Position numbers and translations under genes: made by a program. Of a DNA stretch of 64,000 nucleotides, positions 2,987 through 56,139 are shown one piece after another. Source of the DNA: Minisyncoccota bacterium. GTDB lineage: Bacteria; Patescibacteriota; Minisyncoccia; Phycocordibacterales; UBA9973. The stretch's first letter is position 1. Every line of letters begins with the position of its first letter. The stretch spans positions 75,047-139,046 of the forward strand of contig JANOFO010000003.1 in assembly GCA_031413715.1 (NCBI GenBank). The letters run 5' to 3'. The notes beneath the pieces are model-generated. The model made no database searches. It saw nothing but the letters and a program-made list of their open reading frames with translations, and was not told the DNA's origin.

Positions 2987-3534
2987 TTGGTTGATTCATT
3001 ATTATCATAACCTGTCCGTTTCCGTAGCTCCTCAAGTCCTCGATTGATTCGAACCGAAGCGGCATTGGCTGATATCCCCAATATGTCTCCTATCTCACCC
3101 GGTGACAGGCCTTCTACAAATCGTAGATACACTGGATTCCTATGTGTAGGTGCAAGCTCATCAAGTTTGCACAGAAGATATCTCCCTTCTGGTCCAAGGC
3201 TCATATTCTCGAGTGTTGTCTCATCGGGTGGATCGTAGGGTGCTTCTTCATCTTCATACAAGATATTGTCGAGAGGTATGCTTTTTTTCTTGCGATACCA
3301 GTCGATGATGCGTCGGCGAGCGATCGTAAAGAGAAATGCTCTTTCATTATCGATTTTGGTATTTTCTGCCAAAGTCTGCCAAAGGCGCAAAAATGTGTCT
3401 TGGGTAATATCGAGGGCTTGCTCCCGATCAGAAACTCTGATCAAGCAGAACCTGAAAATGGCATCTGATTCTTTTTCATATATTTCCTCAAATTCGTGGA
3501 TATGATCGGGTTTCATATTTAAGAGTCGTATCAA
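2983..3534 (-). CDS. ECF-type RNA polymerase sigma-70 factor
   Basis: Sigma-70 region 2 (ITQDTFLRLWQ) and a region 4 HTH (LSPGEIGDILGISANAASVRINRGLEELR). Confidence 0.85.
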   Translation of the reverse strand: MIRLLNMKPDHIHEFEEIYEKESDAIFRFCLIRVSDREQALDITQDTFLRLWQTLAENTKIDNERAFLFTIARRRIIDWYRKKKSIPLDNILYEDEEAPYDPPDETTLENMSLGPEGRYLLCKLDELAPTHRNPVYLRFVEGLSPGEIGDILGISANAASVRINRGLEELRKRTGYDNNESTK

Positions 3535-6847: not shown

Positions 6848-7093
6848 TTACTTTTTTATGAGTTCAATTTTCTGCATTCTTGTTAATCTTTTTAATTCTC
6901 CTTCTCTTTTTCTCATGTGGGCAAAAGTTTTGTACTTCTTGGAGTATTTTAGAGTGACTGGTCGTCTGATCTTTGTATAATGTGCACCGGATTTATAGTT
7001 GTTATGCTGATGTACTCTTTTTTCAAGGTCGTTGGTAGAGCCTACATAGAAAGTTTTATCGGCACACTCGAGAATATAGACATAAAACGGCAT
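6848..7093 (-). CDS. GIY-YIG nuclease family protein (UPF0213-like)
   Basis: FYVYILECADKTFYVGSTNDLEKRVHQHN is the GIY-YIG core. The true start is probably the internal Met at 7093, not the track start at 7162. Confidence 0.75.
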   Translation of the reverse strand: MPFYVYILECADKTFYVGSTNDLEKRVHQHNNYKSGAHYTKIRRPVTLKYSKKYKTFAHMRKREGELKRLTRMQKIELIKK

Positions 7094-7543: not shown

Positions 7544-8137
7544 ATGAATTTCTTCCTCGACATTGCGCTGCCATACATTCTTTTATACAAATATTGGGCA
7601 ATATTCGGCGTTACCTTGATAGCAGCGCTTGCGTGCCCCGTACCGCCCGGTACGCTTCTGATGGCATCTGCCGCGTTTGCAAGCCAAGGGTATTTCTCAC
7701 TCTTTTGGGTAATAATTGTCGGCAGCCTTGGCAACATAGTTGGTGACAATTTGGGTTACTTCCTCGCTAGACGTTACGGTCGAAAAATCCTCTATACAAT
7801 AGGTCTTCGTAAAGTACTTGAGTCTGAAAAGTACAAAAATATTGAAAAAAGGCTAGAGCGACGACCTGGATTCCTGATTTTCATCACACGATTCGAAGTC
7901 TTCGCTAATTTGGCGGTGAATCTGATGTGCGGATTAAGTAAAGTACCCTACAGAAAGTATCTGCCGTTTGAAATTGCTGGCGAAATAGCGCAAGTTACAC
8001 TCTATGCTTGCATTGGATATCTTGTCGGAGACAATTGGCACGTCATCAGTAATATCATCAGTAAGTCCTTATTGTTCCTAATCCTTCTAGCAGTGCTTAT
8101 TATTGCCATATTTTGGAAAAAGATTTGGAGAAAATAA
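7544..8137 (+). CDS. DedA/VTT-family membrane protein
   Basis: GDNLGYFLARRYGRKIL motif and multiple TM helices. Confidence 0.8.
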   Translation: MNFFLDIALPYILLYKYWAIFGVTLIAALACPVPPGTLLMASAAFASQGYFSLFWVIIVGSLGNIVGDNLGYFLARRYGRKILYTIGLRKVLESEKYKNIEKRLERRPGFLIFITRFEVFANLAVNLMCGLSKVPYRKYLPFEIAGEIAQVTLYACIGYLVGDNWHVISNIISKSLLFLILLAVLIIAIFWKKIWRK

Positions 8138-10140: not shown

Positions 10141-10261
10141 GCTGCCGACCAGGGAATTTCGATCCTTACAGGATCAGTATACCTTTTCCATTCACAAGTT
10201 CATATGGAAAAGGTTTTCGAATCCCTGACGCAAGACATATTGATGTCTTGCTATCGGCAGC
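10141..10261. ncRNA. Structured element, copy 1. An outer stem gctgccga/tcggcagc encloses three hairpins. The flank duplicates 15 nt of the tRNA-Gln 3' end.
   Basis: Hairpins gatcc-ttaca-ggatc, accttttccat-N12-atggaaaaggt and caagacat-attg-atgtcttg. About 85% identical to 40766-40884, with compensatory changes in the outer stem and the last hairpin. Confidence 0.5.
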
Positions 10262-10278
10262 TTTTGGCGAACAAAAGC
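10260..10278 (-). terminator. Hairpin immediately 3' of tRNA-Gln
   Basis: gcttttg-gcgaa-caaaagc followed by ttttgc. Confidence 0.4.
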
Positions 10279-10284
10279 TTTTGC

Positions 10285-10353
10285 TGCCGACCAGGGATTC
10301 GAACCCCAATACCATCCTCCAGAGGGATGTGTCCTACCATTAGACGAGTCGGC
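10285..10353 (-). tRNA. tRNA-Gln (anticodon CTG)
   Basis: Minus-strand sequence GCCGACTCG...CATCC-CTCTGGA-GGATG...TTCGAAT...GGTCGGCA with a TTCGAAT T-loop. The D- and T-stems are slightly non-canonical by hand fold. Confidence 0.65.
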
Positions 10354-10441
10354 AATAACTCAAACATAGTACCATAAAAATAAAGAAAACCAACCGAATC
10401 AGGGTTTGAAAAGGAGCCATGATTGATGTACAATCAGGTCT

Positions 10442-15577: not shown

Positions 15578-15643
15578 GCCGAGAGTGGGAATCGGACCCA
15601 CGTTCCTGCTTTACGAAAGCAGTGTCCCGCCTGCCTACGCTTG
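15578..15643 (-). pseudogene. tRNA-like 3' portion (anticodon arm CTGCT-TTCGTAA-AGCAG, T-arm GTGGG-TCCGATT-CCCAC, acceptor 3' strand) with no intact 5' half
   Basis: Hand fold. No acceptor 5' strand or D-arm precedes it. Its acceptor 3' strand TCTCGGC pairs 6/7 with the GCCGATA fragment at 15717-15757. Confidence 0.35.
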
Positions 15644-15716
15644 AGCCCACGAGGAGAATTGCACTCCTAACCTTCGATTTACGATACCGATGCTCTACTA
15701 ATTGAGCTACATGGGC
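15644..15716 (-). tRNA. tRNA-Thr (anticodon CGT)
   Basis: GCCCATG-TA-GCTC..GAGC-A-TCGGT-ATCGTAA-ATCGA-AGGTT-AGGAG-TGCAATT-CTCCT-CGTGGGC-T. Full cloverleaf with U33 and A37. Confidence 0.75.
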
Positions 15717-16244: not shown

Positions 16245-16318
16245 GCAGTCGTAGCTCAACTGGTTAGAGCACCCGCCTGTCACGTGGGAGGTTGAGGGTT
16301 CAAGTCCCTTCGACTGCG
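16245..16318 (+). tRNA. tRNA-Asp (anticodon GTC)
   Basis: GCAGTCG-TA-GCTC-AACTGGTT-AGAGC-A-CCCGC-CTGTCAC-GTGGG-AGGTT-GAGGG-TTCAAGT-CCCTT-CGACTGC-G. Confidence 0.85.
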
Positions 16319-16323
16319 CAAGT

Positions 16324-16351
16324 AAAAAGAGAGGCGAAAGCCTCTCTTTTT
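16324..16351 (+). terminator. Rho-independent terminator after tRNA-Asp
   Basis: aaaaagagaggc-gaaa-gcctctcttttt. Confidence 0.7.
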
Positions 16352-16474
16352 CGCGCAGGAGAAGCAAGCAAACTGCTTTGCTTGCGGAGGGACTTGAAAG
16401 GCTTTTCGTTCTCCGATTATTCGGAGCGAAAAGCACCCGCGCCGGTAAGGCGAAAGACTCCCTTCGACTGCGCA
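16352..16474. ncRNA. Structured element linked to the tRNA-Asp 3' end. It ends with a direct 15-nt duplicate of the tRNA 3' end (16460-16474).
   Basis: Starts with cgcgcag (inverse of ctgcgcg), then hairpins gcaagcaaa-ctgc-tttgcttgc, the nested gcttttcg/ctccga-ttat-tcggag/cgaaaagc, and cgcc-ggtaa-ggcg, and ends with cccttcgactgcgca. Confidence 0.45.
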
Positions 16475-16547
16475 AAGGAAAACCACCCATTCTATATGGG
16501 TAGTTTTCTGTATACTGATTCGACAGACAACTGCTATAATAAAATCA

Positions 16548-40765: not shown

Positions 40766-40884
40766 GCGGAGACGAAGAAAATTTCGATCCTTACAGGATC
40801 AGTATACCTTTCCCATTCATTCTTCATATGGAAAAGGTTTTCGAATCTCTCACGCAAGCAAAAAACGTTGCTTGGTCGTCTCCG
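40766..40884. ncRNA. Structured element, copy 2. It has the same core as 10141-10261 with an outer stem cggagacga/tcgtctccg.
   Basis: Conserved core AATTTCGATCCTTACAGGATCAGTATACCTTT(T/C)CCATTCA...TTCATATGGAAAAGGTTTTCGAATC(C/T)CT(G/C)ACGCAAG. The last hairpin is caagcaa-aaaacg-ttgcttg. Confidence 0.5.
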
Positions 40885-41237
40885 CTTTCGCGGGGCTCAA
40901 GCGGAGAGCGTCGAGTTGGAACTTTTTATAGGCAAGACCTGTAAGGTTATTTTAGCACTTTTTGAGAATCTTAATCGACGTATCTCGTGCGCTTCAAAAA
41001 ATGACATGGTATTGAGTATAAAAGGTGCACTCATCTGTCACTTTTTGGCTATATTTTAGTGCCATATTGTGCTATAATAATGACATGAAAATAGGTGGAA
41101 AAACACAAACCAATAGCCGAACAACCTTCTCTATAAAGGCTCTAAACAAGGATCAAGTCAAGTCTCGATCCTTCGATACCATGCGCACATCCTTTGCCAT
41201 CGAGGGCATTCGTTTTAGCGAGTCGCAATTCGCAGCC

Positions 41238-47196: not shown

Positions 47197-47282
47197 GGAA
47201 GCGTGGATGAGTGGTTTAAATCAACGGTTTACTAAACCGTCGTCCCTTTAAAGGACCGTGAGTTCGAATCTCACCGCTTCCG
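47197..47282 (+). tRNA. Class II tRNA (long variable arm). The hand fold gives anticodon loop TTACTAA, so the anticodon reads ACT (Ser) with an unusual A34.
   Basis: Acceptor GGAAGCG/CGCTTCC, a 3-bp D-stem, anticodon stem ACGGT/ACCGT, T-arm GTGAG-TTCGAAT-CTCAC. Isotype uncertain. Confidence 0.6.
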
Positions 47283-48890
47283 CATAGTAATACTTTCAGG
47301 CATGAAAGAAACATTCTGCCTTGATACATAAGTACCTTTATCGGTTCGAACTTGAATCAATTCTTGTTCGGCCTTTTTTAGATTCTCGAATATGAATTTG
47401 AACGGCATATGCAAATCTATAACGAGTTTCTGGTCTTTTATGAGGAGGTTCGAACCAAGACATGAAAAAATGGCTCGCTTAGTTTGCAAGTCTCCCTTTT
47501 GGAACCAGATTTGCGCATAGCGTGCGAAATTAAATGTTCTCTCGCTTAGTTCCATCCATTGTTCCTTAGCCTTGCCGTAGGCCTCTAATTCGGTCTCTAG
47601 GGCGTGTTTCTCCTTCACTAGGCCATTCTTGAGCATCTTGTAATCCTCATTGGTTATAAGCTCATTTTGGGTATTCTCTGCGGAAGTGTATTTAAGCAAC
47701 AAGCTATTTAACTGCGTATCAATTTCAGAAAGCCGCTTCTGCTTGTTAAGCAAAACTTGATGGTATGATTGAGCCTCATTTGAGCGTACTTCATGCAAAT
47801 ACTTTATTGCCCATTGCTGAAATCTTTCAGAAATAGTTATTCCGGAAATCAAAGTGTCAATTTGAGCGGTTAAAGATTCTAGTCTGACACTTCTCTCCGC
47901 ACAGTTCTTGTCTATTCTTTTCGTGCAGTGATAAAAAATATAAGTGTGGGTGTTACCATTCTTTTGTCTTTTTGTTTTTATCTCCGCAGTTATCATTGCT
48001 CCGCAACTTCCACACTTCATTAATCCTGTGAATGCGAAGCTGTGTTTCTTAGGTTTCGGTTTTCCTTTCTTACCGAGAATCACTTGAGCGCGTTCATACT
48101 CCTCATCACTTATCATTGCTTCATGATTACCTTTTTTATTTTCTTCGTTATCAGAATATCCTGCATAAAATCTATTAGAGAATAGCCTGTATACCCCTGC
48201 CTTCCCTAAAGACTTACCTTTATATTTTTTTGTCGTGCGAGTTCTTAAATGAAATTCATTATTGGCAATATCGAGAATTTGCATCACCGTATAATTTCCG
48301 GACAAGAGCATTTGCCACATCCGCTTTACAATATCGAAACGCTCAGGGTCATTAACTATGATGTTGTCTCCTTTATCGCGGATAATAGTGTTTAAGTATC
48401 CCAGCGGCGCCCGACCAGGACGCCAGCCCATCTCTATCTTTGTTTTTAATCCTCGTTTTACATTTACACTCAAGTCTCGAATGTATTGATTTGCAATACC
48501 GAATTCCAGATATGAAAGCAAAGAATTGTCTTCTGGATAATAATCTTTCTCTGGAGTTTTAATGTGCTTTATTTCACCTCGTTGAAGCATGCCTATAATT
48601 ATTCCAGCCTCATCTGGGTTTCGAGCTAGCCTATCTAACTTCCAACATAAAATACCACTGGCTTCACCTTTCTTTATTCGACTAATCATTTCATTAAAGA
48701 CCGGACGATTAGCTGGAGTCTTTGCAGATTTCGATTCTCTTAATTTGCTTACAATCTTAAAAGAAAGTCGCGTTCCTAAATCTTCAAGTGCTTTCTCTTG
48801 GGAATCAAGACTGAGAATCTGCCGGTCATCATCTTCTGTGGACTTTCGGCAGTAAATAAAATAATTATTTTGGTTATGTTTTGTGTTCAT
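47271..48890 (-). CDS. Large serine recombinase (resolvase/invertase N-terminal domain, recombinase domain, zinc ribbon, coiled-coil)
   Basis: YCRKSTEDDDRQ...SLDSQ catalytic Ser region, and CGSCGAMI...CTKRIDKNC zinc ribbon. The 3' end overlaps the tRNA 3' end by 12 nt. Confidence 0.85.
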   Translation of the reverse strand: MNTKHNQNNYFIYCRKSTEDDDRQILSLDSQEKALEDLGTRLSFKIVSKLRESKSAKTPANRPVFNEMISRIKKGEASGILCWKLDRLARNPDEAGIIIGMLQRGEIKHIKTPEKDYYPEDNSLLSYLEFGIANQYIRDLSVNVKRGLKTKIEMGWRPGRAPLGYLNTIIRDKGDNIIVNDPERFDIVKRMWQMLLSGNYTVMQILDIANNEFHLRTRTTKKYKGKSLGKAGVYRLFSNRFYAGYSDNEENKKGNHEAMISDEEYERAQVILGKKGKPKPKKHSFAFTGLMKCGSCGAMITAEIKTKRQKNGNTHTYIFYHCTKRIDKNCAERSVRLESLTAQIDTLISGITISERFQQWAIKYLHEVRSNEAQSYHQVLLNKQKRLSEIDTQLNSLLLKYTSAENTQNELITNEDYKMLKNGLVKEKHALETELEAYGKAKEQWMELSERTFNFARYAQIWFQKGDLQTKRAIFSCLGSNLLIKDQKLVIDLHMPFKFIFENLKKAEQELIQVRTDKGTYVSRQNVSFMPESITMRKR

Positions 48891-50364: not shown

Positions 50365-51903
50365 ATGGCAGACTCAAATACCCAAAACCCACAAATTTAC
50401 GAAATGTATAAACCTCTGAGAAACAGAATGCGTGAATTAAATATCATAGAATCCTTATATGTTATTTGGGCTTATTGTAATCACATGCAGTTTACCAACT
50501 CAAAAATACCTTCGGATATTCAAGTTGATAATTCCTTTCTTAACCCTACACATTGGGCTAAGCGTAATATATACGAATGGGAACTTGAGGTCTTAACGCG
50601 AGAAGTAATTTTGCACGGCGAGGATGCTGGAAGCAGAAAAACACTAAAGAGGTGGGACACTCTAGTCAACGCAGTTAATACATTAAAATCTATTGAGAAT
50701 AACATTGGTGGAATTTTTGTAAATAAAAATAATATCCTCTCCGAGTTATTTAGAATCACCCATCGGCAGTTTCCGTGGCAACAACTTAGACCCACGCATG
50801 AGCATATTATCCGTTACTATAAAATTTTTAACTTTCCACCGGTGAGTACTATCGTAGAACAAACTACGGGACTTACCACAAGACAAATATATTTTCTTCA
50901 TATGGCATTATTAGGTGCATTTACTAAAAGCGCAAAATTAAACTTGCCCTTGGAAATTTCTTTACACGGTTTTACTAAAGAACAAGCAAACAGTTTTGCG
51001 AAATCTTTTGCTAAACCAATCGATGATATTAGAGAAATGGTAAAAAATTCTCAACAGTATAATGATAAGTTTGCATATAACAACCAGAGTATTCACGAAT
51101 ATCCCTTAATTACTTTCCAAGAGAACGGCAGAGAAATAGCTATGTGCCCAATGCCAACTTTGCTATTTTGGCGTGCTAGTAGTGGTTTATATTACAAATT
51201 GATAAATCAACCAGGTTTCGATAAAGCATTTGGAGAGTCTTTCGAAAAATATACAGGTGAAGTTTTACAAAAAGCAGTACAATCCAAAAACATTTCTGTA
51301 ATACCCTCTGTAAAATACAACACCGGAAAAGGTAGAGACGAAGAGACCACAGACTGGATATTAAAAGATACAAATGGATTATTGTTTATAGAATGTAAAA
51401 CCAAAAGAGTTCCTTATACGGCAAAATTTGAATTAGACGCAACACTTGTAGCTACCGAATTTGAGAAGATGGCAAAAATTATTGTACAGACCTATAAATC
51501 AATTAAAGATTACCAAGATGGTCATTACCCAAACTTGCCTTTTGAAAAAGGAAAATCCGTCTACCCACTGGTCGTTACTTTAGAGGAGTGGTATGTTTTT
51601 CAAGGAGATTTTATAAAACCGATAAAGGAAGCTGTACTGAGGTTGTTTAACAAGGAATCACTTCCAGAATCATGGCTAGAAGAAATGCCATATCAAATTT
51701 GCTCAATACAAGAATTTGAGGTTGCAATTCAAACTATTAATCATACTGGAATTAAAGAGTTCATGGAGAAAAAAGTTATGGATAAAGAGAAAAAAACTTG
51801 GTCTATTAATACTTTTGCATCGTCAGAATTCCCAGAGATTTCAAAAAACTATAAACCACTTTTTGTTGATGAGTTTGATGCCCTGTTCTCATCTTTTCTC
51901 TAG
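50365..51903 (+). CDS. Uncharacterised 512-aa protein with a PD-(D/E)xK-like nuclease motif in its C-terminal half
   Basis: DWILKDTNGLLFIECKTK (a D...E-x-K arrangement). No other recognisable domain. Confidence 0.4.
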   Translation: MADSNTQNPQIYEMYKPLRNRMRELNIIESLYVIWAYCNHMQFTNSKIPSDIQVDNSFLNPTHWAKRNIYEWELEVLTREVILHGEDAGSRKTLKRWDTLVNAVNTLKSIENNIGGIFVNKNNILSELFRITHRQFPWQQLRPTHEHIIRYYKIFNFPPVSTIVEQTTGLTTRQIYFLHMALLGAFTKSAKLNLPLEISLHGFTKEQANSFAKSFAKPIDDIREMVKNSQQYNDKFAYNNQSIHEYPLITFQENGREIAMCPMPTLLFWRASSGLYYKLINQPGFDKAFGESFEKYTGEVLQKAVQSKNISVIPSVKYNTGKGRDEETTDWILKDTNGLLFIECKTKRVPYTAKFELDATLVATEFEKMAKIIVQTYKSIKDYQDGHYPNLPFEKGKSVYPLVVTLEEWYVFQGDFIKPIKEAVLRLFNKESLPESWLEEMPYQICSIQEFEVAIQTINHTGIKEFMEKKVMDKEKKTWSINTFASSEFPEISKNYKPLFVDEFDALFSSFL

Positions 51904-52120
51904 AATAAATTAACCTCTAACAGAGGTCATCCCTTCCATAGATTATTTTGTTGTTTTAGGAACTGGTACCACCTAAATTTCTTTTTTCGAAACAGAGAGA
52001 GGAAGACTTTATACCTCTTTGAGTTAATAACTTTATATATAAATGTATACTCAAATATAATAACGGATAGAAAGATACCCCCTTCTATATTAGCTAATAA
52101 GTAAGTGCTATAATTCCCTT

Positions 52121-53866
52121 ATGAGCTCACAAACCCTGGTTTGTCAAAACTGCAAGAAAGACTTTGTAATAGAGTCAGAAGATTTTAGTTACTACGAAAG
52201 AATCAAGGTTCCAGCTCCAACTTGGTGCGCTGATTGTCGTTTAGTAAGACGCATGTCTTACAGGAATGAAAGAAATTTGTATAAAAGAAAATGCCAAGCT
52301 CAAGGGCACGGAGAAGAAATGATTTCAACTTTCTCTCCTGATAAACCAGATACAATCTATTGTCATACTGCTTGGAATGGAGATAGTTGGGATGCAATGA
52401 ATTACGGACGAGAATATGACTTTTCAAAATCATTTTTTGAACAAATGAGGGAGCTTTGGAAAAGTGTTCCTGATGTGGGGCTATTTAATATAAACCCAGT
52501 AAATAGTGATTATTGTAGCATCACTCAAGACAACAAAAATTGCTATCTAGTTATTGGAGGAGATTTCAACGAAGACTCTTTATATTCTTCCTTCATATTC
52601 CACTCCAAAGAATGCATGGATTGTCATTTAGGCTCAAAAATTGAGAAAAATTACGAAACCACAGACTGCATTTCTTGTTTTAATTTGAAATATAGTCGCT
52701 ACTGTGAAACTTGCTATGATAGCGCTTTCCTCTTCAACTGTCGCAATTGTCATGATTGTTTCGGGTGCGTAAATTTAGTAAACAAAGAATATTGTATTTT
52801 CAACAAACAATACACCAAAGAAGAGTACAAAGAAAAAATGAAGGCGATAGATTTTGGCTCTTTCCAGGATATTCAAAAAACAAAAAAAGAATTTGAGGAG
52901 TTTAGTTTGAAGTTTCCAAGGCGCTTCGCAAAAATAGTAAAATCAGTTGATGTCTCAGGAGATTTTATAGAAAACTCTAAAAAATGTACTTACTGCTTTT
53001 CTGTGTTTGGTGGAGCCGAAGAGAGTAAAAATTTATGGCTCATTTATTCTCAAGTAAAGGATTCTTATGACATAGACCACTCTGGGCTCAACTCCATGGA
53101 ATGTTATGAATCTTCAAGCGTATACCCAGGAAACCAAGTAATGTTTTCTAGGTTTATTTGGGATAGCCATCATATTGAATATTCGTATAACTGTAATAAC
53201 TCTTCATACTTATTTGGCTGTGTAGGGGTAAAGAATAAAAAATATTGCATATTTAATAAACAATACGAGCCAGAGGAATGGAAAGTTATGCGAGAAAAAA
53301 TTATTAGCCACATGAAAGAAATGCCATATAAAGATAGAGGGGGTAGAGTATATTCTTATGGAGAGTTTTTTCCTATTGAACTTTCTCCTTTCGCATACAA
53401 CGAAACAGTAGCTCAGGAGTTAAAACCGCTTGATAAAAAAGAAATAGAAGGTTCTGGATATAACTACGCCGAAAATACTGATAGAAATTACAAAATCGAA
53501 AGAGAATACAAAGATTTGCCTGACAATATAGACCAGGTAGATAAAAACATCTTAAACAAAACAATTAGTTGTGCGCATGGTGGAAATTGTAAGGATGGTT
53601 GTACTCAGGCATTCAAAATTACCGAACCGGAACTTTCTTTTTACAATAATTACAGAATACCCCTCCCTAGAATGTGTCCAAACTGTAGGTACGCGGACAG
53701 GTTAAAACAGAAAAATCCTCTCCATCTCTGGCGCAGGACTTGTATGTGCGACAAAAAGCATTCTAATCACACAGGAAATTGCGATATTGAATTTGAAACT
53801 TCTTATTCCCCTGACCGGCCGGAGATAGTGTATTGTGAAAAATGCTATCAGCAAGAAGTTTACTAG
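52121..53866 (+). CDS. Uncharacterised 581-aa cysteine-rich protein with N- and C-terminal zinc-ribbon-like CxxC pairs and an internal duplication
   Basis: CQNCKK...CADCR at the N-terminus and CPNCR...CEKCYQQ at the C-terminus. The segment ..FGCV..K.YCIFNKQY..EE.K is repeated. Many CxxC/CxC clusters. Confidence 0.5.
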   Translation: MSSQTLVCQNCKKDFVIESEDFSYYERIKVPAPTWCADCRLVRRMSYRNERNLYKRKCQAQGHGEEMISTFSPDKPDTIYCHTAWNGDSWDAMNYGREYDFSKSFFEQMRELWKSVPDVGLFNINPVNSDYCSITQDNKNCYLVIGGDFNEDSLYSSFIFHSKECMDCHLGSKIEKNYETTDCISCFNLKYSRYCETCYDSAFLFNCRNCHDCFGCVNLVNKEYCIFNKQYTKEEYKEKMKAIDFGSFQDIQKTKKEFEEFSLKFPRRFAKIVKSVDVSGDFIENSKKCTYCFSVFGGAEESKNLWLIYSQVKDSYDIDHSGLNSMECYESSSVYPGNQVMFSRFIWDSHHIEYSYNCNNSSYLFGCVGVKNKKYCIFNKQYEPEEWKVMREKIISHMKEMPYKDRGGRVYSYGEFFPIELSPFAYNETVAQELKPLDKKEIEGSGYNYAENTDRNYKIEREYKDLPDNIDQVDKNILNKTISCAHGGNCKDGCTQAFKITEPELSFYNNYRIPLPRMCPNCRYADRLKQKNPLHLWRRTCMCDKKHSNHTGNCDIEFETSYSPDRPEIVYCEKCYQQEVY

Positions 53867-54023
53867 CTCAGAACAGCTTCTGTTTCAGATAGTTTGGGTA
53901 TGAAAAAGTATGTATTTGGATTGCTATAATAGGTTCTAATGTCGTATACTAACCTCCGCAGACAATTTATATCGGAGCGACCTGAGTACCAAAAATAGCA
54001 TATTTGAGTTAAAATAGCTGTAT

Positions 54024-55016
54024 ATGGAAAAACAAAATTTAGGTTTAAAAAACGATACTGTAGATATGGAGAAACCTGAAGTTCAGAATAATTTGGGCTC
54101 TTTATTGAAAGAAAAAGGCATTGAAAATGTGCCTAGGATTAAAACCAACTTCTTCTTTAATAAGCATGCAACCACAGAGGATGGAGAGGCCATCAGTGAA
54201 CGATTAAAAAATACCGACATCTTACTTCAAGAAAATGCAGGTTGGGATCCTGCTCGCCTCGATATTTTCAATAATGTATCAAACGGCATCCTAACGCCCG
54301 AACAGGCAATGGACATGGAGAAACAGAGAGGAAAACCATTCTTCCATGAAGATTTTTATAACGCACTATTAAAAGGTTTGTATAAATCAGAAAAGAAAGT
54401 AATGCTAGTTGATGTTCCAGACGATAATGTAGTCTTCAAAAACCTCATGGGTCTGTTTTCAGGTAACGGCACTTATAATAATCTCATAGACAAGTCCTTG
54501 CCTTATGAAGAAATGTTACGGAGGGTCGGTAATGTATCAAAATTTGAATCTGACATGCAAAAGGCTCGCGAAGATTATATTTTGGAAAATCTTCCAGAAG
54601 CTCTGGTCAAAATATTGAAGCAAAATCCTGAGTTCCAGAAAAAAGAAGATTTGAAGATACTTTTCTCGATGGGAGGTTTTCACACTCGGCTGTATCACGA
54701 GATGAAAAAATCAGGAAATGATGTAAATCGAGAATTTTCAAGTATGCCGTATAAGTTTGATCCTCGGATGGCCGCTGAACGCAATATCCACTTCAGGGGT
54801 ATGGAGAAGTCAAAATATTTATTGCCTAAGATTACCCTCTATCTTCTTCTAAAAAAAGAACTGCCGAATTTAAATATATCAAATAATATTATGTCTGCTT
54901 TTTCTGATGAAAAAATTAAGAATCTCTATGAAAAATACCAAGCAGTTTCTTCCAAAGAGTTCAAAGAATACCTCGAATCGATATTATCAGTATCCGACCC
55001 ATATGTCCCAGTTTAG
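54024..55016 (+). CDS. Hypothetical 330-aa protein. Its last 7 codons and stop lie inside dispersed repeat module M1.
   Basis: Long ORF with no recognisable motif. The C-terminus ...SDPYVPV* is encoded by gacccatatgtcccagtttag, which recurs at the end of the 39065-40072 gene. Confidence 0.5.
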   Translation: MEKQNLGLKNDTVDMEKPEVQNNLGSLLKEKGIENVPRIKTNFFFNKHATTEDGEAISERLKNTDILLQENAGWDPARLDIFNNVSNGILTPEQAMDMEKQRGKPFFHEDFYNALLKGLYKSEKKVMLVDVPDDNVVFKNLMGLFSGNGTYNNLIDKSLPYEEMLRRVGNVSKFESDMQKAREDYILENLPEALVKILKQNPEFQKKEDLKILFSMGGFHTRLYHEMKKSGNDVNREFSSMPYKFDPRMAAERNIHFRGMEKSKYLLPKITLYLLLKKELPNLNISNNIMSAFSDEKIKNLYEKYQAVSSKEFKEYLESILSVSDPYVPV

Positions 55017-55158: not shown

Positions 55159-56139
55159 ATGAGCGAAAAACCTCGACACAAACGTAGATTCAAAAATCCT
55201 GAGAAATGTTTTCAGACTAAAGGATTCCATTTTGCATCGGTTCGATGGATCCTCACTCGAATATTTAAAAATTCTTACAAATTGGGAATAGACTTGCCAG
55301 AGACACATGTGGTTTCTAAGAAAGAAGCCCTTTCTTTAAAAGAAAAATATCATAATGTTCCATCTATAACTTGGCTTGGTCATGCTTCATTTCTCTTAAA
55401 AATTGGAGATGTACAAATATTAACTGACCCGATTTTATTTGGTACCCCTGCAACACCATTACTAAAAAGTTTAAAAAGGTTACCGAGCCCACTTCAAGCA
55501 ATGGAATTAACTGGGGTAAACATACTACTCCTTTCCCATGAGCATGCTGATCATGTACATCATCCCTCTTTGGCAAGTCTCTTAAAAAAAGAAGATATCC
55601 AACCTATTGTTTCACTTGGCATAGGCAAAAAGATACTTAAGCATAAATTCAAAGAATCTATTGAGCTTGATTGGTTTGAAATATACAAAGTAGGTAATAC
55701 GATAACGATTACCGCTGTACCCGCAGTTCATTATTCTGATTTCACTAATAGCACATTGTGGTCTGGATTTATTATTTCTTTTACAGATCAAGAGGGAAAG
55801 ATAAAGAAAATATATTTTGGCGGAGATACTGGCTATGGTCCATTCATAACAAGAGATATAGCTCCATACGGTCCATTTGATATTGCCCTTATTGGAGTGG
55901 GCGCCTTCGAACTTCCCTATCAATCTCGCGCGCCAGTTGTGCATACGAACCCAGAACAAGCTGTTAATATTGCCAAAGAAATACAAGCTCAAAAAATTAT
56001 TGGGATGCATTGGGGAACAATGAGAATGGCAGATGAAGTTCCACACACATTATTCCCTCGTATGATTCAGCATGCAAATGAGATCGGATATCAAGGAGAA
56101 ATAAACATGCTTCGTATCGGGGAAACCATTGCAATGTAA
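55159..56139 (+). CDS. MBL-fold metallo-hydrolase
   Basis: LLLSHEHADHVH (HxHxDH) and ITWLGHASFLLK. Confidence 0.85.
   Translation: MSEKPRHKRRFKNPEKCFQTKGFHFASVRWILTRIFKNSYKLGIDLPETHVVSKKEALSLKEKYHNVPSITWLGHASFLLKIGDVQILTDPILFGTPATPLLKSLKRLPSPLQAMELTGVNILLLSHEHADHVHHPSLASLLKKEDIQPIVSLGIGKKILKHKFKESIELDWFEIYKVGNTITITAVPAVHYSDFTNSTLWSGFIISFTDQEGKIKKIYFGGDTGYGPFITRDIAPYGPFDIALIGVGAFELPYQSRAPVVHTNPEQAVNIAKEIQAQKIIGMHWGTMRMADEVPHTLFPRMIQHANEIGYQGEINMLRIGETIAM

Follow-up and report, generated by a model that had tools for sequence, protein, structure and literature searches.

A small folded non-coding unit bracketed by copied tRNA ends in Patescibacteria: a possible mobile cassette of tRNA genes

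Introduction

The classical mark of integrase-mediated insertion into tRNA genes is a direct repeat that starts in the T-loop and ends slightly beyond the tRNA 3' end. In the integron attC sites and in the CTX-phage attP(+), which mimics dif, it is the structure that is conserved, inverted segments annealing into a double-stranded recombination site. Integron-type cassettes are small, promoterless and stacked in arrays, and the covariation of hairpins is known for the REP elements. The ssrA islands of Dehalococcoides are integrative elements of the tRNA-gene type in which the tRNA 3' end is duplicated (PMC3146451).

The element described here, copy A, lies behind a tRNA-Gln gene in a 64,000-nucleotide stretch of DNA from a Minisyncoccota bacterium (hereafter the window), and is one member of an undescribed and widespread family of folded non-coding units of about 120 nt in Patescibacteria. 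It has in common with the integrative elements of tRNA genes (tyrosine- and serine-recombinase islands, CIMEs and the tycheposons of Prochlorococcus) the direct repeat from T-loop to 3' end, the intact tRNA, the tandem accumulation at one tRNA and the presence or absence between relatives. Derivatives devoid of integrase also exist among these elements (CIMEs, remnants), as is the case for the unit studied here. It differs from them by its length of only about 110-150 nt, by its non-coding nature without any linked recombinase, by the pairing of the direct copy of the target with an inverted one, by the RNA-type covariation of its conserved part, and by the occurrence of one and the same core behind at least eight tRNA identities, the repeat being matched to each. 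Among the marks of an att duplication, the flanking tRNA 3' repeat with an intact tRNA is found, as are occupied and empty sites, and a recombinase gene is not.

By analogy, the unit may also be likened to attC and to the CTX attP(+), with its conserved structure, its annealing inverted segments and its small stacked cassettes. Its outer structure is a palindrome conserved in structure and variable in sequence, with no conserved boxes in the stem. In contrast to attC and attP(+), this stem is devoid of R-box-like core sequences, its sequence is that of the target tRNA, and the unit leaves a repeat of about 20 nt rather than a few nucleotides.

Results

Organization of the element behind tRNA-Gln

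The features of the window are collected in Table 1. The tRNA-Gln gene is encoded on the minus strand and, therefore, "downstream" means toward lower coordinates. The first-pass annotation had read, downstream of this gene, the succession of the tRNA 3' end, a hairpin, an inverted copy, a core of hairpins and a direct copy of the tRNA terminus, and this order is indeed present (10141-10261, minus strand). The spacer hairpin is the apex of a longer hairpin in which the 3' acceptor strand of the tRNA (DR1) pairs with the inverted copy (IR). The IR complements the tRNA acceptor 3' strand through N73 and C74, and the likeness between DR1 and its second copy, DR2, reaches into the T-loop with a 2-nt indel. 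The P2 hairpin is the element's own part and covaries throughout the family. The core consists, in order, of UUCGAAAA, the P3a hairpin, UAUACUGA, the P3b hairpin and UCGAAAU.

The gene downstream of copy A encodes an aldo/keto reductase. A -10-like box of its own can be seen by eye, and a scan for consensus promoters gave no minus-strand promoter there; the exact-protein look-up of this reductase returned one 1.3-kb contig only.

Table 1. Coordinates of the three copies, of their parts and of the neighbouring tRNA sequences in the window
Feature	Position	Strand	Sequence or evidence
tRNA-Gln(CUG)	10283-10354	minus	ARAGORN; Rfam tRNA 52 bits
DR1, final 15 nt of tRNA-Gln	10283-10297	minus	TCCCTGGTCGGCAGC
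Spacer hairpin	10262-10282	minus	AAAAGCUUUUGUUCGCCAAAA; read from sequence
Copy A, whole element behind tRNA-Gln	10141-10261	minus	
Copy A, IR = P1 5' strand	10254-10261	minus	GCUGCCGA; inverted copy GCTGCCGA
Copy A, P2 hairpin	10230-10251	minus	GCAAGACAU CAAU AUGUCUUGC; fold; family covariation
Copy A, P3 5' strand	10222-10227	minus	CAGGGA; Watson-Crick complement of tRNA T-stem 3' strand
Copy A, conserved core	10156-10221	minus	alignment, covariation, covariance model 82.5 bits
Copy A, P3a, long hairpin	10182-10213	minus	UGA/GAA internal motif
Copy A, P3b hairpin	10161-10175	minus	UGUAA loop (invariant)
Copy A, DR2 = P3 3' + P1 3' strands	10141-10155	minus	UCCCUGGUCGGCAGC; exact copy of tRNA-Gln 3' end; exact repeat of TCCCTGGTCGGCAGC (within-window search, E=0.006)
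tRNA-Asp(GUC)	16245-16319	plus	ARAGORN
DR1 of third copy, tRNA-Asp 3' end + 2 nt of trailer	16305-16321	plus	17-nt exact repeat
Third copy, diverged, behind tRNA-Asp	16353-16475	plus	
Third copy, IR	16353-16358	plus	GCGCAG
Third copy, P2	16364-16385	plus	
Third copy, core	16386-16465	plus	covariance model 23.5 bits, E=0.012
Third copy, DR2	16459-16475	plus	
Copy B, orphan	40766-40885	minus	covariance model 79.8 bits
Copy B, IR	40876-40885	minus	
Copy B, P2	40855-40874	minus	
Copy B, core	40774-40852	minus	
Copy B, DR2	40766-40775	minus	UCGUCUCCGC
Degenerate tRNA-Ser fragment, T-loop to 3' end	40901-40922	minus	GTTCCAACTCGACGCTCTCCGC; by eye

Other copies in the window

The window contains three copies: the one behind tRNA-Gln, the orphan copy B and a diverged variant behind tRNA-Asp. 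Copy B, already annotated as a second copy that keeps the core, shares with copy A some 80 nt of core that are 91% identical (E=1e-22), and both copies fold much better than their shuffled versions (z-scores of -5.4 to -9.3). The DR2 of copy B is the acceptor 3' strand of a tRNA of the Ser(GCU) type (the 3' end of the tRNA-Ser(GCU) of the window is CCGTCTCCGCA), and its P3 is paired through G.U wobbles only. The degenerate tRNA-Ser fragment sits directly upstream of copy B and, as read by eye, pairs with its IR; judged by its sequence, it is possibly a relic of DR1. The gene downstream of copy B codes, judged from its translation, for a putative LMW-phosphatase-like protein.

The core of the third copy is composed of CUUGAAA, P3a, ACCCGC, GCC GGUAA GGC and GAAAGACU. 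This copy is flanked on both sides by T-run hairpins (16324-16352 and 16485-16501), and a terminator-like site lies downstream of it. The comparison of the terminator flanks at tRNA-Asp with the empty site of the relative L047, which bears on which of the two repeats is native, gave a score that is not significant (10, for a shuffle mean of 5.5 and a standard deviation of 2.1), and the flanks of L050 and L052 did not distinguish the two repeats either.

The only recombinase encoded in the window is a large serine recombinase (47271-48890), which adjoins tRNA-Ser(ACU) and is not next to any copy of the cassette. At 55159-56139 lies the gene of a Lactamase_B_2 protein that may be RNase Z.

A family linked to tRNA genes

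The search for further copies yielded, besides the third one in the window, about 25 more in Patescibacteria genomes and metagenomes. The same architecture is present in more than 25 independent assemblies (NCBI, ENA, JGI and Logan), with E-values of 1e-11 to 1e-18. The possibility, raised by the first-pass annotation, that the identity to the tRNA end is an assembly artefact is contradicted by this distribution. More generally, we give virtually no credit to chance similarity or to an artefact around the tRNA gene: the shortness of the repeats is the sole point in favour of such an explanation, which has against it the number of independent assemblies and the shuffled controls, which never match the observed values.

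The unit measures about 110-150 nt and is non-coding, the inserts spanning 110-620 nt without an ORF. Wherever the upstream sequence can be read and a tRNA is detected in it, the copy follows this tRNA immediately on its 3' side and on the same strand. The linked tRNAs are those for Gln, Ser-GCU, Ser-GGA, Pro, His, Tyr, Thr, Ile and Asp, together with one that carries a group I intron, and they score as normal tRNAs. The unit is organized as an intact tRNA whose end is DR1, then a short hairpin that often has a T-run, the IR, P2, the P3 5' strand, the core and DR2; the arrangement of tRNA end, hairpin and IR is found in 13 of the 15 tRNA-linked copies. Tandem units occur in five loci (L030, L032, L033, L034 and L040), DR2 has been lost in L032, L039 and L047, and the IR in L026 and L029.

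The downstream genes vary from copy to copy, and the all-against-all clustering of the ORFs neighbouring the copies revealed no recurrent protein family, recombinase, reverse transcriptase or transposase. The scan of viral contigs with the patterns of the type-1 and type-2 cores gave chance matches only or none. At the gathering threshold, Rfam 15 detects only tRNAs in the window and no family that fits the element; a permissive scan (E up to 10) of copies A and B gave only weak chance matches to snoRNAs and miRNAs; and, in 24 related loci, Rfam recognizes tRNAs, one group I intron and one LOOT RNA, none of which overlaps the element. Full-text literature searches returned no description of such an element.

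The outer stems are copies of the neighbouring tRNA

The 3' strand of the outer stem reproduces exactly the T-stem and acceptor 3' strand of the upstream tRNA (Gln, Ser, Pro, His, Tyr, Asp, Thr and Ile), and the 5' strand is the complement of the same segment. DR1 and DR2 are the same 15-22 nt of the tRNA gene, a segment that begins in the T-loop/T-stem 3' strand, includes the acceptor 3' strand and reaches N73/C74. When a tRNA tail is compared with the 3' end of its own element, the longest stretch of exact identity averages 14.1 nt and attains 15-22 nt in 9 of 12 tRNA-linked copies, compared with a mean of 6.0 nt and a maximum of 10 nt for mismatched pairs of tRNA and element; the target duplication is found in further copies. 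The repeat extends beyond N73 and, in relatives bearing the second cassette type, proceeds up to 11 nt into the trailer (L051), which implies that it was copied from the tRNA gene and not from the mature tRNA. The likeness to the tRNA terminus is hence a genomic duplication rather than a convergence, as had been proposed.

The IR is the complement of the DR segment, P2 being interposed. Two alternative pairings are open to it: that with DR2 closes the element as P1/P3, and that with DR1 gives a long hairpin that starts inside the tRNA. The P3 3' strand passes straight into the P1 3' strand without a spacer, in a tRNA-like manner. The terminal inverted repeats change from one copy to the next, being equal to the local tRNA sequence, and the duplication of 15-26 nt always corresponds to the tRNA end. 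The outer stems of copies A and B each reproduce the 3' end of a different tRNA, so that the apparent compensatory change between them is the tracking of the tRNA.

Structural conservation of P2 and of the core

The conserved parts of the element are the P2 hairpin and the three-way core. P2 is paired in 131 of 133 cells across 19 copies, for a mean of 77 in shuffles, and 88.9% of the aligned cells are paired versus 73.2% in shuffles, none of 500 shuffles matching the observed value. The search pattern put no constraint on two pairs of P3b, and both are formed in 17 of 17 copies, with three to four pair types each. The invariance of the junction sequences is partly imposed by the search patterns used for collecting the copies. 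The covariation of P2, P3a and P3b is genuine and supports a selection on single-strand structure. The paired compensatory change claimed from the comparison of copies A and B holds for P2 and does not hold for the outer stem, which was copied from different tRNAs. The sense strand, i.e. that of the tRNA, folds better in 13 of 18 copies and G.U pairs number 25 versus 11, a strand asymmetry that is modest (p=0.03). The conserved part would act as a folded single strand, most likely an RNA in the tRNA sense.

Between the window and L047, whose PyrG proteins are only 80% identical, the core is conserved while the surrounding intergenic DNA cannot be aligned. Such a strong conservation would also be expected of an RNA useful to the host. 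A structured ncRNA serving the host, which would mimic a tRNA minihelix and be transcribed by read-through of the tRNA, has to be considered, and we regard it as rather unlikely. P1 stacked on P3 would reproduce the cognate acceptor/T-stem helix, so that RNase P and RNase Z would excise the element; the core, with its T-loop-like UUCGA and UGUAA and the tandem G.A of P3a, would bind a protein or the tRNA machinery; and the identity with the tRNA would be kept because the IR must alternate between the tRNA 3' end and DR2 in a folding or maturation switch. Besides the conservation of the core in L047 in spite of its unalignable surroundings, the covariation of P2, P3a and P3b, the G.U asymmetry in the tRNA-sense direction, the retention of P3 in copy B through G.U pairs only, the spacer-free junction of the P3 and P1 3' strands, the alternative pairing of the IR with DR1 or DR2 and the Lactamase_B_2 gene of the window are all in keeping with this proposal. 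On the other hand, the element is dispensable, since identical tRNA genes of close relatives are devoid of it, and many copies have no DR2 or no IR. Moreover, P1 pairs N73 and C74, unlike a tRNA substrate; the T-run hairpin that often separates the tRNA from the element would limit read-through; no tRNA-like Rfam model scores the element; and the presence of a protein-coding cassette and of an unrelated core within the same bracket suggests that this bracket is the signature of an insertion and not an RNA design.

Occupied sites, empty sites and alternative cargo

In L045, PyrG is 82% identical, the PyrG-LOG-tRNA-Gln synteny is kept and the tRNA-Gln is identical to that of the window, yet the element is missing. 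The tRNA-Gln site is occupied in the window and in L047; L045 has there, instead, a cassette with a GIY-YIG ORF, so that an unrelated cargo, an 82-aa GIY-YIG gene, is held within the same bracket of tRNA ends. The window also encodes a GIY-YIG homologue (6851-7087), around which there are no tRNA-end repeats. At tRNA-Asp the window has the element and L047 an empty site, and the identical tRNA-Thr genes of L050 and L052 are empty in the former and occupied in the latter. A second type of structured core is found in the same bracket in L051, L052 and L053. Furthermore, the core subtypes are independent of the tRNA identity: copy A (Gln) scores 0.94 with copy B (Ser-type), 0.91 with L013 (Ser) and 0.85 with its ortholog in L047 (Gln). 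Neither an excised form nor a fresh insertion was seen among the copies found, and most copies within one genome are diverged (copy A and the Asp variant, or L030a and L030b), so that recent bursts are not evident.

These sites could also be the decayed attachment-site scars of larger elements (prophages, islands or tycheposon-like elements) that use the T-loop/3' end of the tRNA as attB. Repeated integration followed by deletion would have left an att-proximal stretch and the tRNA-end repeat, the core being functionless recombinase-arm or regulatory DNA. The 15-26-nt repeats, which begin in the T-loop and end shortly after the tRNA 3' end, their tandem occurrence, the vicinity of the serine recombinase and tRNA-Ser(ACU) in the window, and the tRNA-Ser fragments close to copy B would agree with such an origin, which we nevertheless find distinctly unlikely. 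Indeed, independent scars would not all keep a complete IR-P2-core-DR2 succession, and neither the 100% pairing of P3b with multiple pair types, nor the 98% pairing of P2, nor the sense-strand G.U bias is expected of them. No integrase adjoins any copy, neither core type is present on viral contigs, and an inverted copy of the target is foreign to ordinary attP remnants.

Known classes of RNA and mobile DNA

Several other identities were considered and rejected. In the case of small self-cleaving ribozymes (hammerhead, twister-sister, hatchet, pistol) and of YrlA, cmscan gave nothing, and the hammerhead core motif is absent by eye. A riboswitch or cis-regulatory leader does not agree with downstream genes that are unrelated, without a recurrent neighbour family. 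A retroviral-type primer-binding site for a mature tRNA is incompatible with an IR that complements the gene trailer and not CCA, and a TIGR-Tas array with the absence of a short-period array. P2 is not a relic of the anticodon arm, its loops containing no matching anticodon. The P1 5' strand is not the tRNA's own 5' acceptor strand, as it pairs with N73/C74 and the trailer; the same idea fails for the P3 5' strand, a perfect complement where the T-stem of the tRNA has G.U pairs.

The tRNA-like ncRNAs (mascRNA/menRNA, YrlA and viral tRNA-like structures) have in common with the element an acceptor-like helix on a T-stem-like helix, the proximity of tRNA genes and the T-loop-like pentanucleotides UUCGA and UGUAA. 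The element is distinguished from them by its paired N73, by a helix that is identical to the neighbouring tRNA rather than generic, by the absence of a D-arm and of an anticodon arm, and by the silence of the Rfam mascRNA and tRNA models; as a tRNA or tRNA-like RNA (mascRNA, YrlA) it is rejected, ARAGORN and RF00005 being silent and the "T-loop" having a 60-nt insertion.

The MITEs, the REP/BIME elements and the palindromes derived from IS200/IS605 are, like the element, short, non-coding, hairpin-rich, intergenic, often situated after terminators, and multi-copy with decayed copies. However, the element has terminal inverted repeats that are derived from the target and not conserved, and it is strictly oriented and positioned relative to tRNA genes. 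The element is not a classical transposon that carries terminal inverted repeats of its own, and a MITE does not agree with the lack of conserved terminal inverted repeats and with a duplication of 15-26 nt that is always the tRNA end. In the comparison with IS200/IS605, made on the 64 kb and the short loci, the hairpins P3a and P3b and TTCGAA/TCGAA at both core borders would fit; the long target duplication of 15-22 nt is nonetheless present, unlike in IS200/IS605, which makes none.

Discussion

We tentatively favour, with a confidence that falls a little short of even, a small non-coding and non-autonomous insertion cassette at the T-loop-to-3' end of Patescibacteria tRNA genes, endowed with a core that is folded as a single strand. 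This reading is preferred because of the empty sites beside identical tRNAs, the tandem arrays, the alternative cargo and the cores that ignore the tRNA identity. Of the two interpretations put forward by the first-pass annotation, a mobile element targeting tRNA 3' ends is thus the one that fits best, and a new ncRNA ranks lower.

The cassette would enter the tRNA gene by recombination in or beside the T-loop (TTCGAA). It would bring or regenerate a working tRNA 3' end, so that the essential tRNA survives, and the second copy of the tRNA end would stay behind as a repeat. In the DR:IR duplex a single strand would present the target segment as double-stranded, and this duplex may serve for attachment or recognition; with the spacer hairpin, it would also supply a new terminator. 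P2, P3a and P3b would be under selection because the folded strand is needed for the propagation or for a function of the cassette RNA, and the putative enzyme would act in trans. Several points run against this cassette: the copies have no linked recombinase, reverse transcriptase or transposase; neither excised forms nor fresh insertions were seen; a moving core would need stems matching each new tRNA; most copies within one genome are diverged; the strong conservation of the core in L047 would equally suit a host RNA; the G.U asymmetry is modest; and the search patterns account in part for the invariant junctions.

A more radical proposal, which we deem highly unlikely, is that the cassettes are a new kind of miniature mobile element travelling as a single-stranded circle of about 150 nt (RNA or DNA), a viroid-like or integron-like parasite of tRNA genes. 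One tRNA segment, from the T-loop to the 3' end, would be paired to the IR to give a fully paired branched rod, whose DR:IR arm would imitate the target tRNA gene in double-stranded form. The unit could be freed by RNase Z through cuts at the two identical N73 sites, and the IR would act as a splint that brings N73 of DR2 and C74 of the DR1 trailer together so that they can be ligated. Re-entry into tRNA genes would then take place at the T-loop, the target-matching arms of the circle being renewed from the host tRNA.

If the insertion cassette is confirmed, the tRNA genes of Patescibacteria host tiny non-coding cassettes in which a duplicated tRNA end, an RNA-like core and an inverted target form a combination that has not been described. 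At least two unannotated families of structured RNAs would be added, the type-1 and type-2 cores both being absent from Rfam 15, and the odd tRNA-like or partial-tRNA calls beside tRNA genes in assemblies of the Candidate Phyla Radiation (CPR, i.e. Patescibacteria) would be explained. The three-way complementarity between the tRNA end, the IR and DR2 would be an attachment structure or an RNA switch, which is directly testable. These cassettes would then provide a new model for the way in which non-autonomous elements recognize, and safely occupy, the essential single-copy tRNA genes of reduced genomes.

Results

Anatomy of the copies in the window

The element is a folded non-coding unit of about 120 nt located 3' of tRNA genes. 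In the copy found behind tRNA-Gln (copy A), the tRNA end (DR1) is followed by a spacer hairpin, an inverted copy of this end (IR), the conserved hairpins and a direct copy (DR2), with DR1 and DR2 forming an exact 15-nt repeat (see the table). The orphan copy B, in which the first-pass annotation had seen a kept core, does retain it, with 91% identity to copy A (E=1e-22). For both copies, and whichever strand is taken, folding is 5-9 sd better than in shuffled sequences, and P3 of copy B pairs solely via G.U wobbles, on the tRNA-sense strand. Just upstream of copy B, a degenerate tRNA-Ser fragment spans T-loop to 3' end, with a P3b-like motif (GACCTGTAAGGTT) on the opposite strand; the two point to an older partial copy that was rearranged or inverted, and the covariance model gives just 12 bits nearby. 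The G+C content of the window is 39%, its gene content is typical of Patescibacteria, and its nearest PyrG relatives carry the names Patescibacteria, Paceibacterota or Kaiserbacteria.

Coordinates of the features in the window and in related loci from Patescibacteria genomes and metagenomes (L0xx)
Feature	Locus	Position	Strand
tRNA-Gln(CUG)	window	10283-10354	-
DR1 of copy A, tRNA-Gln end TCCCTGGTCGGCAGC (minus-strand reading)	window	10283-10297	-
Small spacer hairpin of copy A	window	10262-10282	-
IR of copy A, GCTGCCGA	window	10254-10261	-
Hairpin P2 of copy A	window	10230-10251	-
P3 5' strand of copy A, CAGGGA	window	10222-10227	-
Core of copy A: TTCGAAAA, long hairpin P3a, TATACTGA, P3b with loop TGTAA, TCGAAAT	window		-
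DR2 of copy A, TCCCTG-GTCGGCAGC	window	10141-10155	-
Copy B	window	40766-40885	-
tRNA-Ser fragment and P3b-like motif	window	40901-40960	
Core of the copy behind tRNA-Asp	window	16386-16465	+
Second core	L051	102-250; 7943-8140	
Second core	L052	4859-4990	
Second core	L053	2948-3110	
GIY-YIG insert	L045	8592-8946	
GIY-YIG homologue	window	6851-7087	-
Motif upstream of orphan copy	L034	~7560-7600	-
Motif upstream of orphan copy	L040	~3230-3270	-
Group I intron	L037	9896-10171	-
LOOT RNA	L052	20681-20801	+
Large serine recombinase	window	47271-48890	-
Three long ORFs	window	50365-55016	
tRNA-Ser(ACU)	window	47197-47283	+
tRNA-Ser(ACU)	L025	2918-3005	
tRNA-Ser(ACU)	L029	2488-2577	
67-nt 'tRNA-Thr(CGU)' call	window	15578-15644	-
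Lactamase_B_2 protein	window	55159-56139	+

Distribution of the element

No family of Rfam 15 matches the element, and a literature search returned no description of it. When 185,579 species genomes were scanned with a gapped pattern, 3 true copies emerged among 17 chance matches, all sources being Patescibacteria/Paceibacterota or unclassified ('uncultured bacterium') MAGs, and a tighter pattern applied to metagenomes yielded 19 loci, almost all true. A covariance model, as had been suggested at first pass, was derived from 17 cores and recovered further copies, including tandem second and third units (L030, L032, L033, L034, L040) and a third, diverged window copy behind tRNA-Asp (23.5 bits, E=0.012), which a 12-nt repeat of the tRNA tail had flagged beforehand and independently. 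Neither this core (type-1) nor the second one described below (type-2) is present in viral contigs, and no recurrent protein family was found near the copies.

Pairing in the conserved part points to a folded single strand

On alignment A2, 88.9% of the cells are paired, against 73.2% after shuffling; none of 500 shuffles attains the observed value, and shifting the partner by one column lowers pairing to 50-55%. In P3b, two pairs left unconstrained by the search pattern are formed in all 17 copies, by three and four pair types, and both sides have changed in 8 of the 10 pairs of P3a. The base-pair-preserving change claimed earlier holds for P2 across 19 copies, where 131 of 133 cells are paired (shuffle mean 77, maximum 105), within boundaries set by eye. 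Moreover, 13 of 18 cores fold better on the tRNA-sense strand (Wilcoxon p=0.03), where 25 G.U pairs occur, versus 11 on the antisense strand. The conserved part thus has the properties of a folded single strand in the tRNA sense, most simply read as RNA, with top-strand ssDNA also possible. The invariance of TATACTGA, CTGTAAG and TCGAA is in part imposed by the search patterns, whereas TTCGAAAA, unconstrained in the second scan, is retained in most copies. That the copies are inert att scars is improbable, a reading that leaves the covariation unaccounted for.

The outer stems repeat the neighbouring tRNA

Nearly all copies are immediately downstream of a tRNA gene and share its strand: tRNA-Gln (window, L030, L032, L047), tRNA-Ser-GCU (L025, L029), tRNA-Ser-GGA (L013), tRNA-Pro (L026), tRNA-His (L028), tRNA-Tyr (L035, L039), tRNA-Thr (L033), tRNA-Ile (L042) and tRNA-Asp (window). 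At the contig edge, L027 opens with a tRNA tail, and the tRNA preceding the L037 copy, missed by ARAGORN, is interrupted by a group I intron (74 bits with Rfam). The 3' end of the element repeats the T-stem 3' strand, the acceptor 3' strand and N73/C74 of its own tRNA, with a longest exact match of 14.1 nt on average (15-22 nt in 9 of 12), against a mean of 6.0 nt and a maximum of 10 for mismatched tRNA/element pairs. The IR and P3 5' strands are the complement of this tRNA 3' segment. Their origin as a copy of the tRNA 5' strands was ruled out, since N73 and C74 are paired, as is the encoded CCA in L013, and Watson-Crick pairs occur where the tRNA T-stem has G.U. The IR complementarity runs on into the trailer after DR1 (17 nt in L039), so that tRNA end, spacer and IR form one long hairpin, the IR being able to pair with either DR1 or DR2.

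As the outer stems copy the neighbouring tRNA, the difference between those of copies A and B, initially taken for compensatory change, reflects a Gln-type versus a Ser-GCU-type end (CGTCTCCGC); the tRNA-Ser(GCU) of the window, 6 kb away, has the 3' end CCGTCTCCGCA. Four 'orphan' copies (L034, L040, L041, L043) have a common upstream motif ending in …CGGACATCG(C/T)CACCGC or …ACACCGCA, which looks like the 3' end of a tRNA-like or tmRNA-like gene and for which ARAGORN and Rfam made no call. The three-way complementarity and the strong core conservation would both be accounted for by the main rival reading, a rather unlikely one, of a host-useful RNA mimicking a tRNA minihelix or acting as a maturation switch.

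Occupied sites, empty sites and alternative cargo

Orthologous regions were fetched via PyrG, about 1 kb from tRNA-Gln. L045 (PyrG 82% identical) shares the PyrG-LOG-tRNA-Gln synteny of the window, and its tRNA-Gln is identical; its site is without the element, in place of which stands a 355-nt insert with an 82-aa GIY-YIG ORF, bracketed by a 21-nt repeat of the tRNA-Gln from T-loop to 3' end plus 3 nt of trailer. A 63%-identical homologue of this ORF, devoid of tRNA-end repeats, occurs in the window; the ORF may represent mobile cargo of the tRNA-end site or a nuclease for it. In L047 (PyrG 80%), tRNA-Gln is followed by the element (60.8 bits); the IR matches that of the window, the spacer and P2 show no relationship to the window's, the decayed DR2 retains a G where the tRNA now carries A, and tRNA-Asp has a plain terminator only. 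DR2 is lost in L032, L039 and L047, and the IR in L026 and L029.

A second structured core (GGGGTCGGGRAA…CCCGTGGAGGAAGG…), unrelated to the first and without an Rfam match, sits in the same tRNA/IR/core/DR2 bracket behind tRNA-Thr and tRNA-Gln in L051, L052 and L053. It comprises a GGGGUCGGGRAA hairpin, CCCGUGGAGGAAGG and GGAAAACCGUGGG, with the tRNA T-arm/3' end copied in inverted orientation on one side and in direct orientation on the other, and the repeat takes in up to 11 nt of the trailer. The tRNA-Thr genes of L050 and L052 are identical, and the site in L050 is empty. A minihelix mimic or switch leaves this dispensability, the decayed copies and the alternative cargo unaccounted for. 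Core similarity is independent of tRNA identity: copy A (Gln) scores 0.94 with copy B (Ser-type, same genome) and 0.91 with L013 (Ser-GGA), above the 0.85 with its positional orthologue L047 (Gln), to which L013 is closest (0.94).

Other features

L052 also contains a LOOT RNA (Rfam, 78.6 bits) among small ORFs beside primase/D5-like genes, a block likely to be an insert of prophage or plasmid-like type. In the window, a 539-aa large serine recombinase (Resolvase, Recombinase and Zn_ribbon_recom domains) overlaps by 13 nt, 3' end to 3' end, a tRNA-Ser whose anticodon, ACU (ARAGORN), is unusual, and is followed by three long ORFs without a Pfam match; the region may be an element integrated at this tRNA. 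Because tRNA-Ser(ACU) adjoins tRNA-Ser(GCU) in three different genomes, it is conserved and not miscalled. A 67-nt 'tRNA-Thr(CGU)' call shares 2 nt with the end of the true tRNA-Thr(CGU) and is not reported by the Rfam tRNA model; it may represent a truncated relic resembling a tRNA, or an insert of another type at a tRNA end. The window also encodes a 326-aa Lactamase_B_2 protein that matches RNase Z in size and family, which would matter should the tRNA-like ends of the element be cleavage sites.

Discussion

We tentatively favour reading the element as a non-autonomous cassette inserted at tRNA ends, with a core that is structured, probably at the RNA level. The gene-level repeat that starts in the T-loop and stops just beyond the tRNA, the strict orientation, the tandem stacking, the identical tRNAs with filled or with empty sites behind them and the interchangeable cargo in the same bracket together form a signature of insertion into the tRNA 3' region, as opposed to the design of a tRNA-mimicking RNA. 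Duplication, polymorphism and structural selection are shown by the data. The cassette would undergo a recombination step involving an enzyme acting in trans, and the DR:IR duplex would mimic the target, provide an attachment structure or act as a terminator. The core could gain stems matching a new tRNA by target-templated synthesis; alternatively, old tRNA-specific stem lineages could swap cores by recombination at conserved borders (TTCGAAAA, TCGAA, GAAAG…CUUUCGU).

Integrative elements targeting tRNA genes show such a signature at the tRNA 3' region. The ssrA islands of PMC3146451 provide a comparison case. In contrast to these elements, the unit is of miniature, non-coding size, is closed by an inverted copy of the target and has a core with RNA-type covariation common to at least 8 tRNA identities, three features not known from them. 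In a minority reading, the element would be a small single-strand circle renewing its own target-matching arms, which would make it categorically new.
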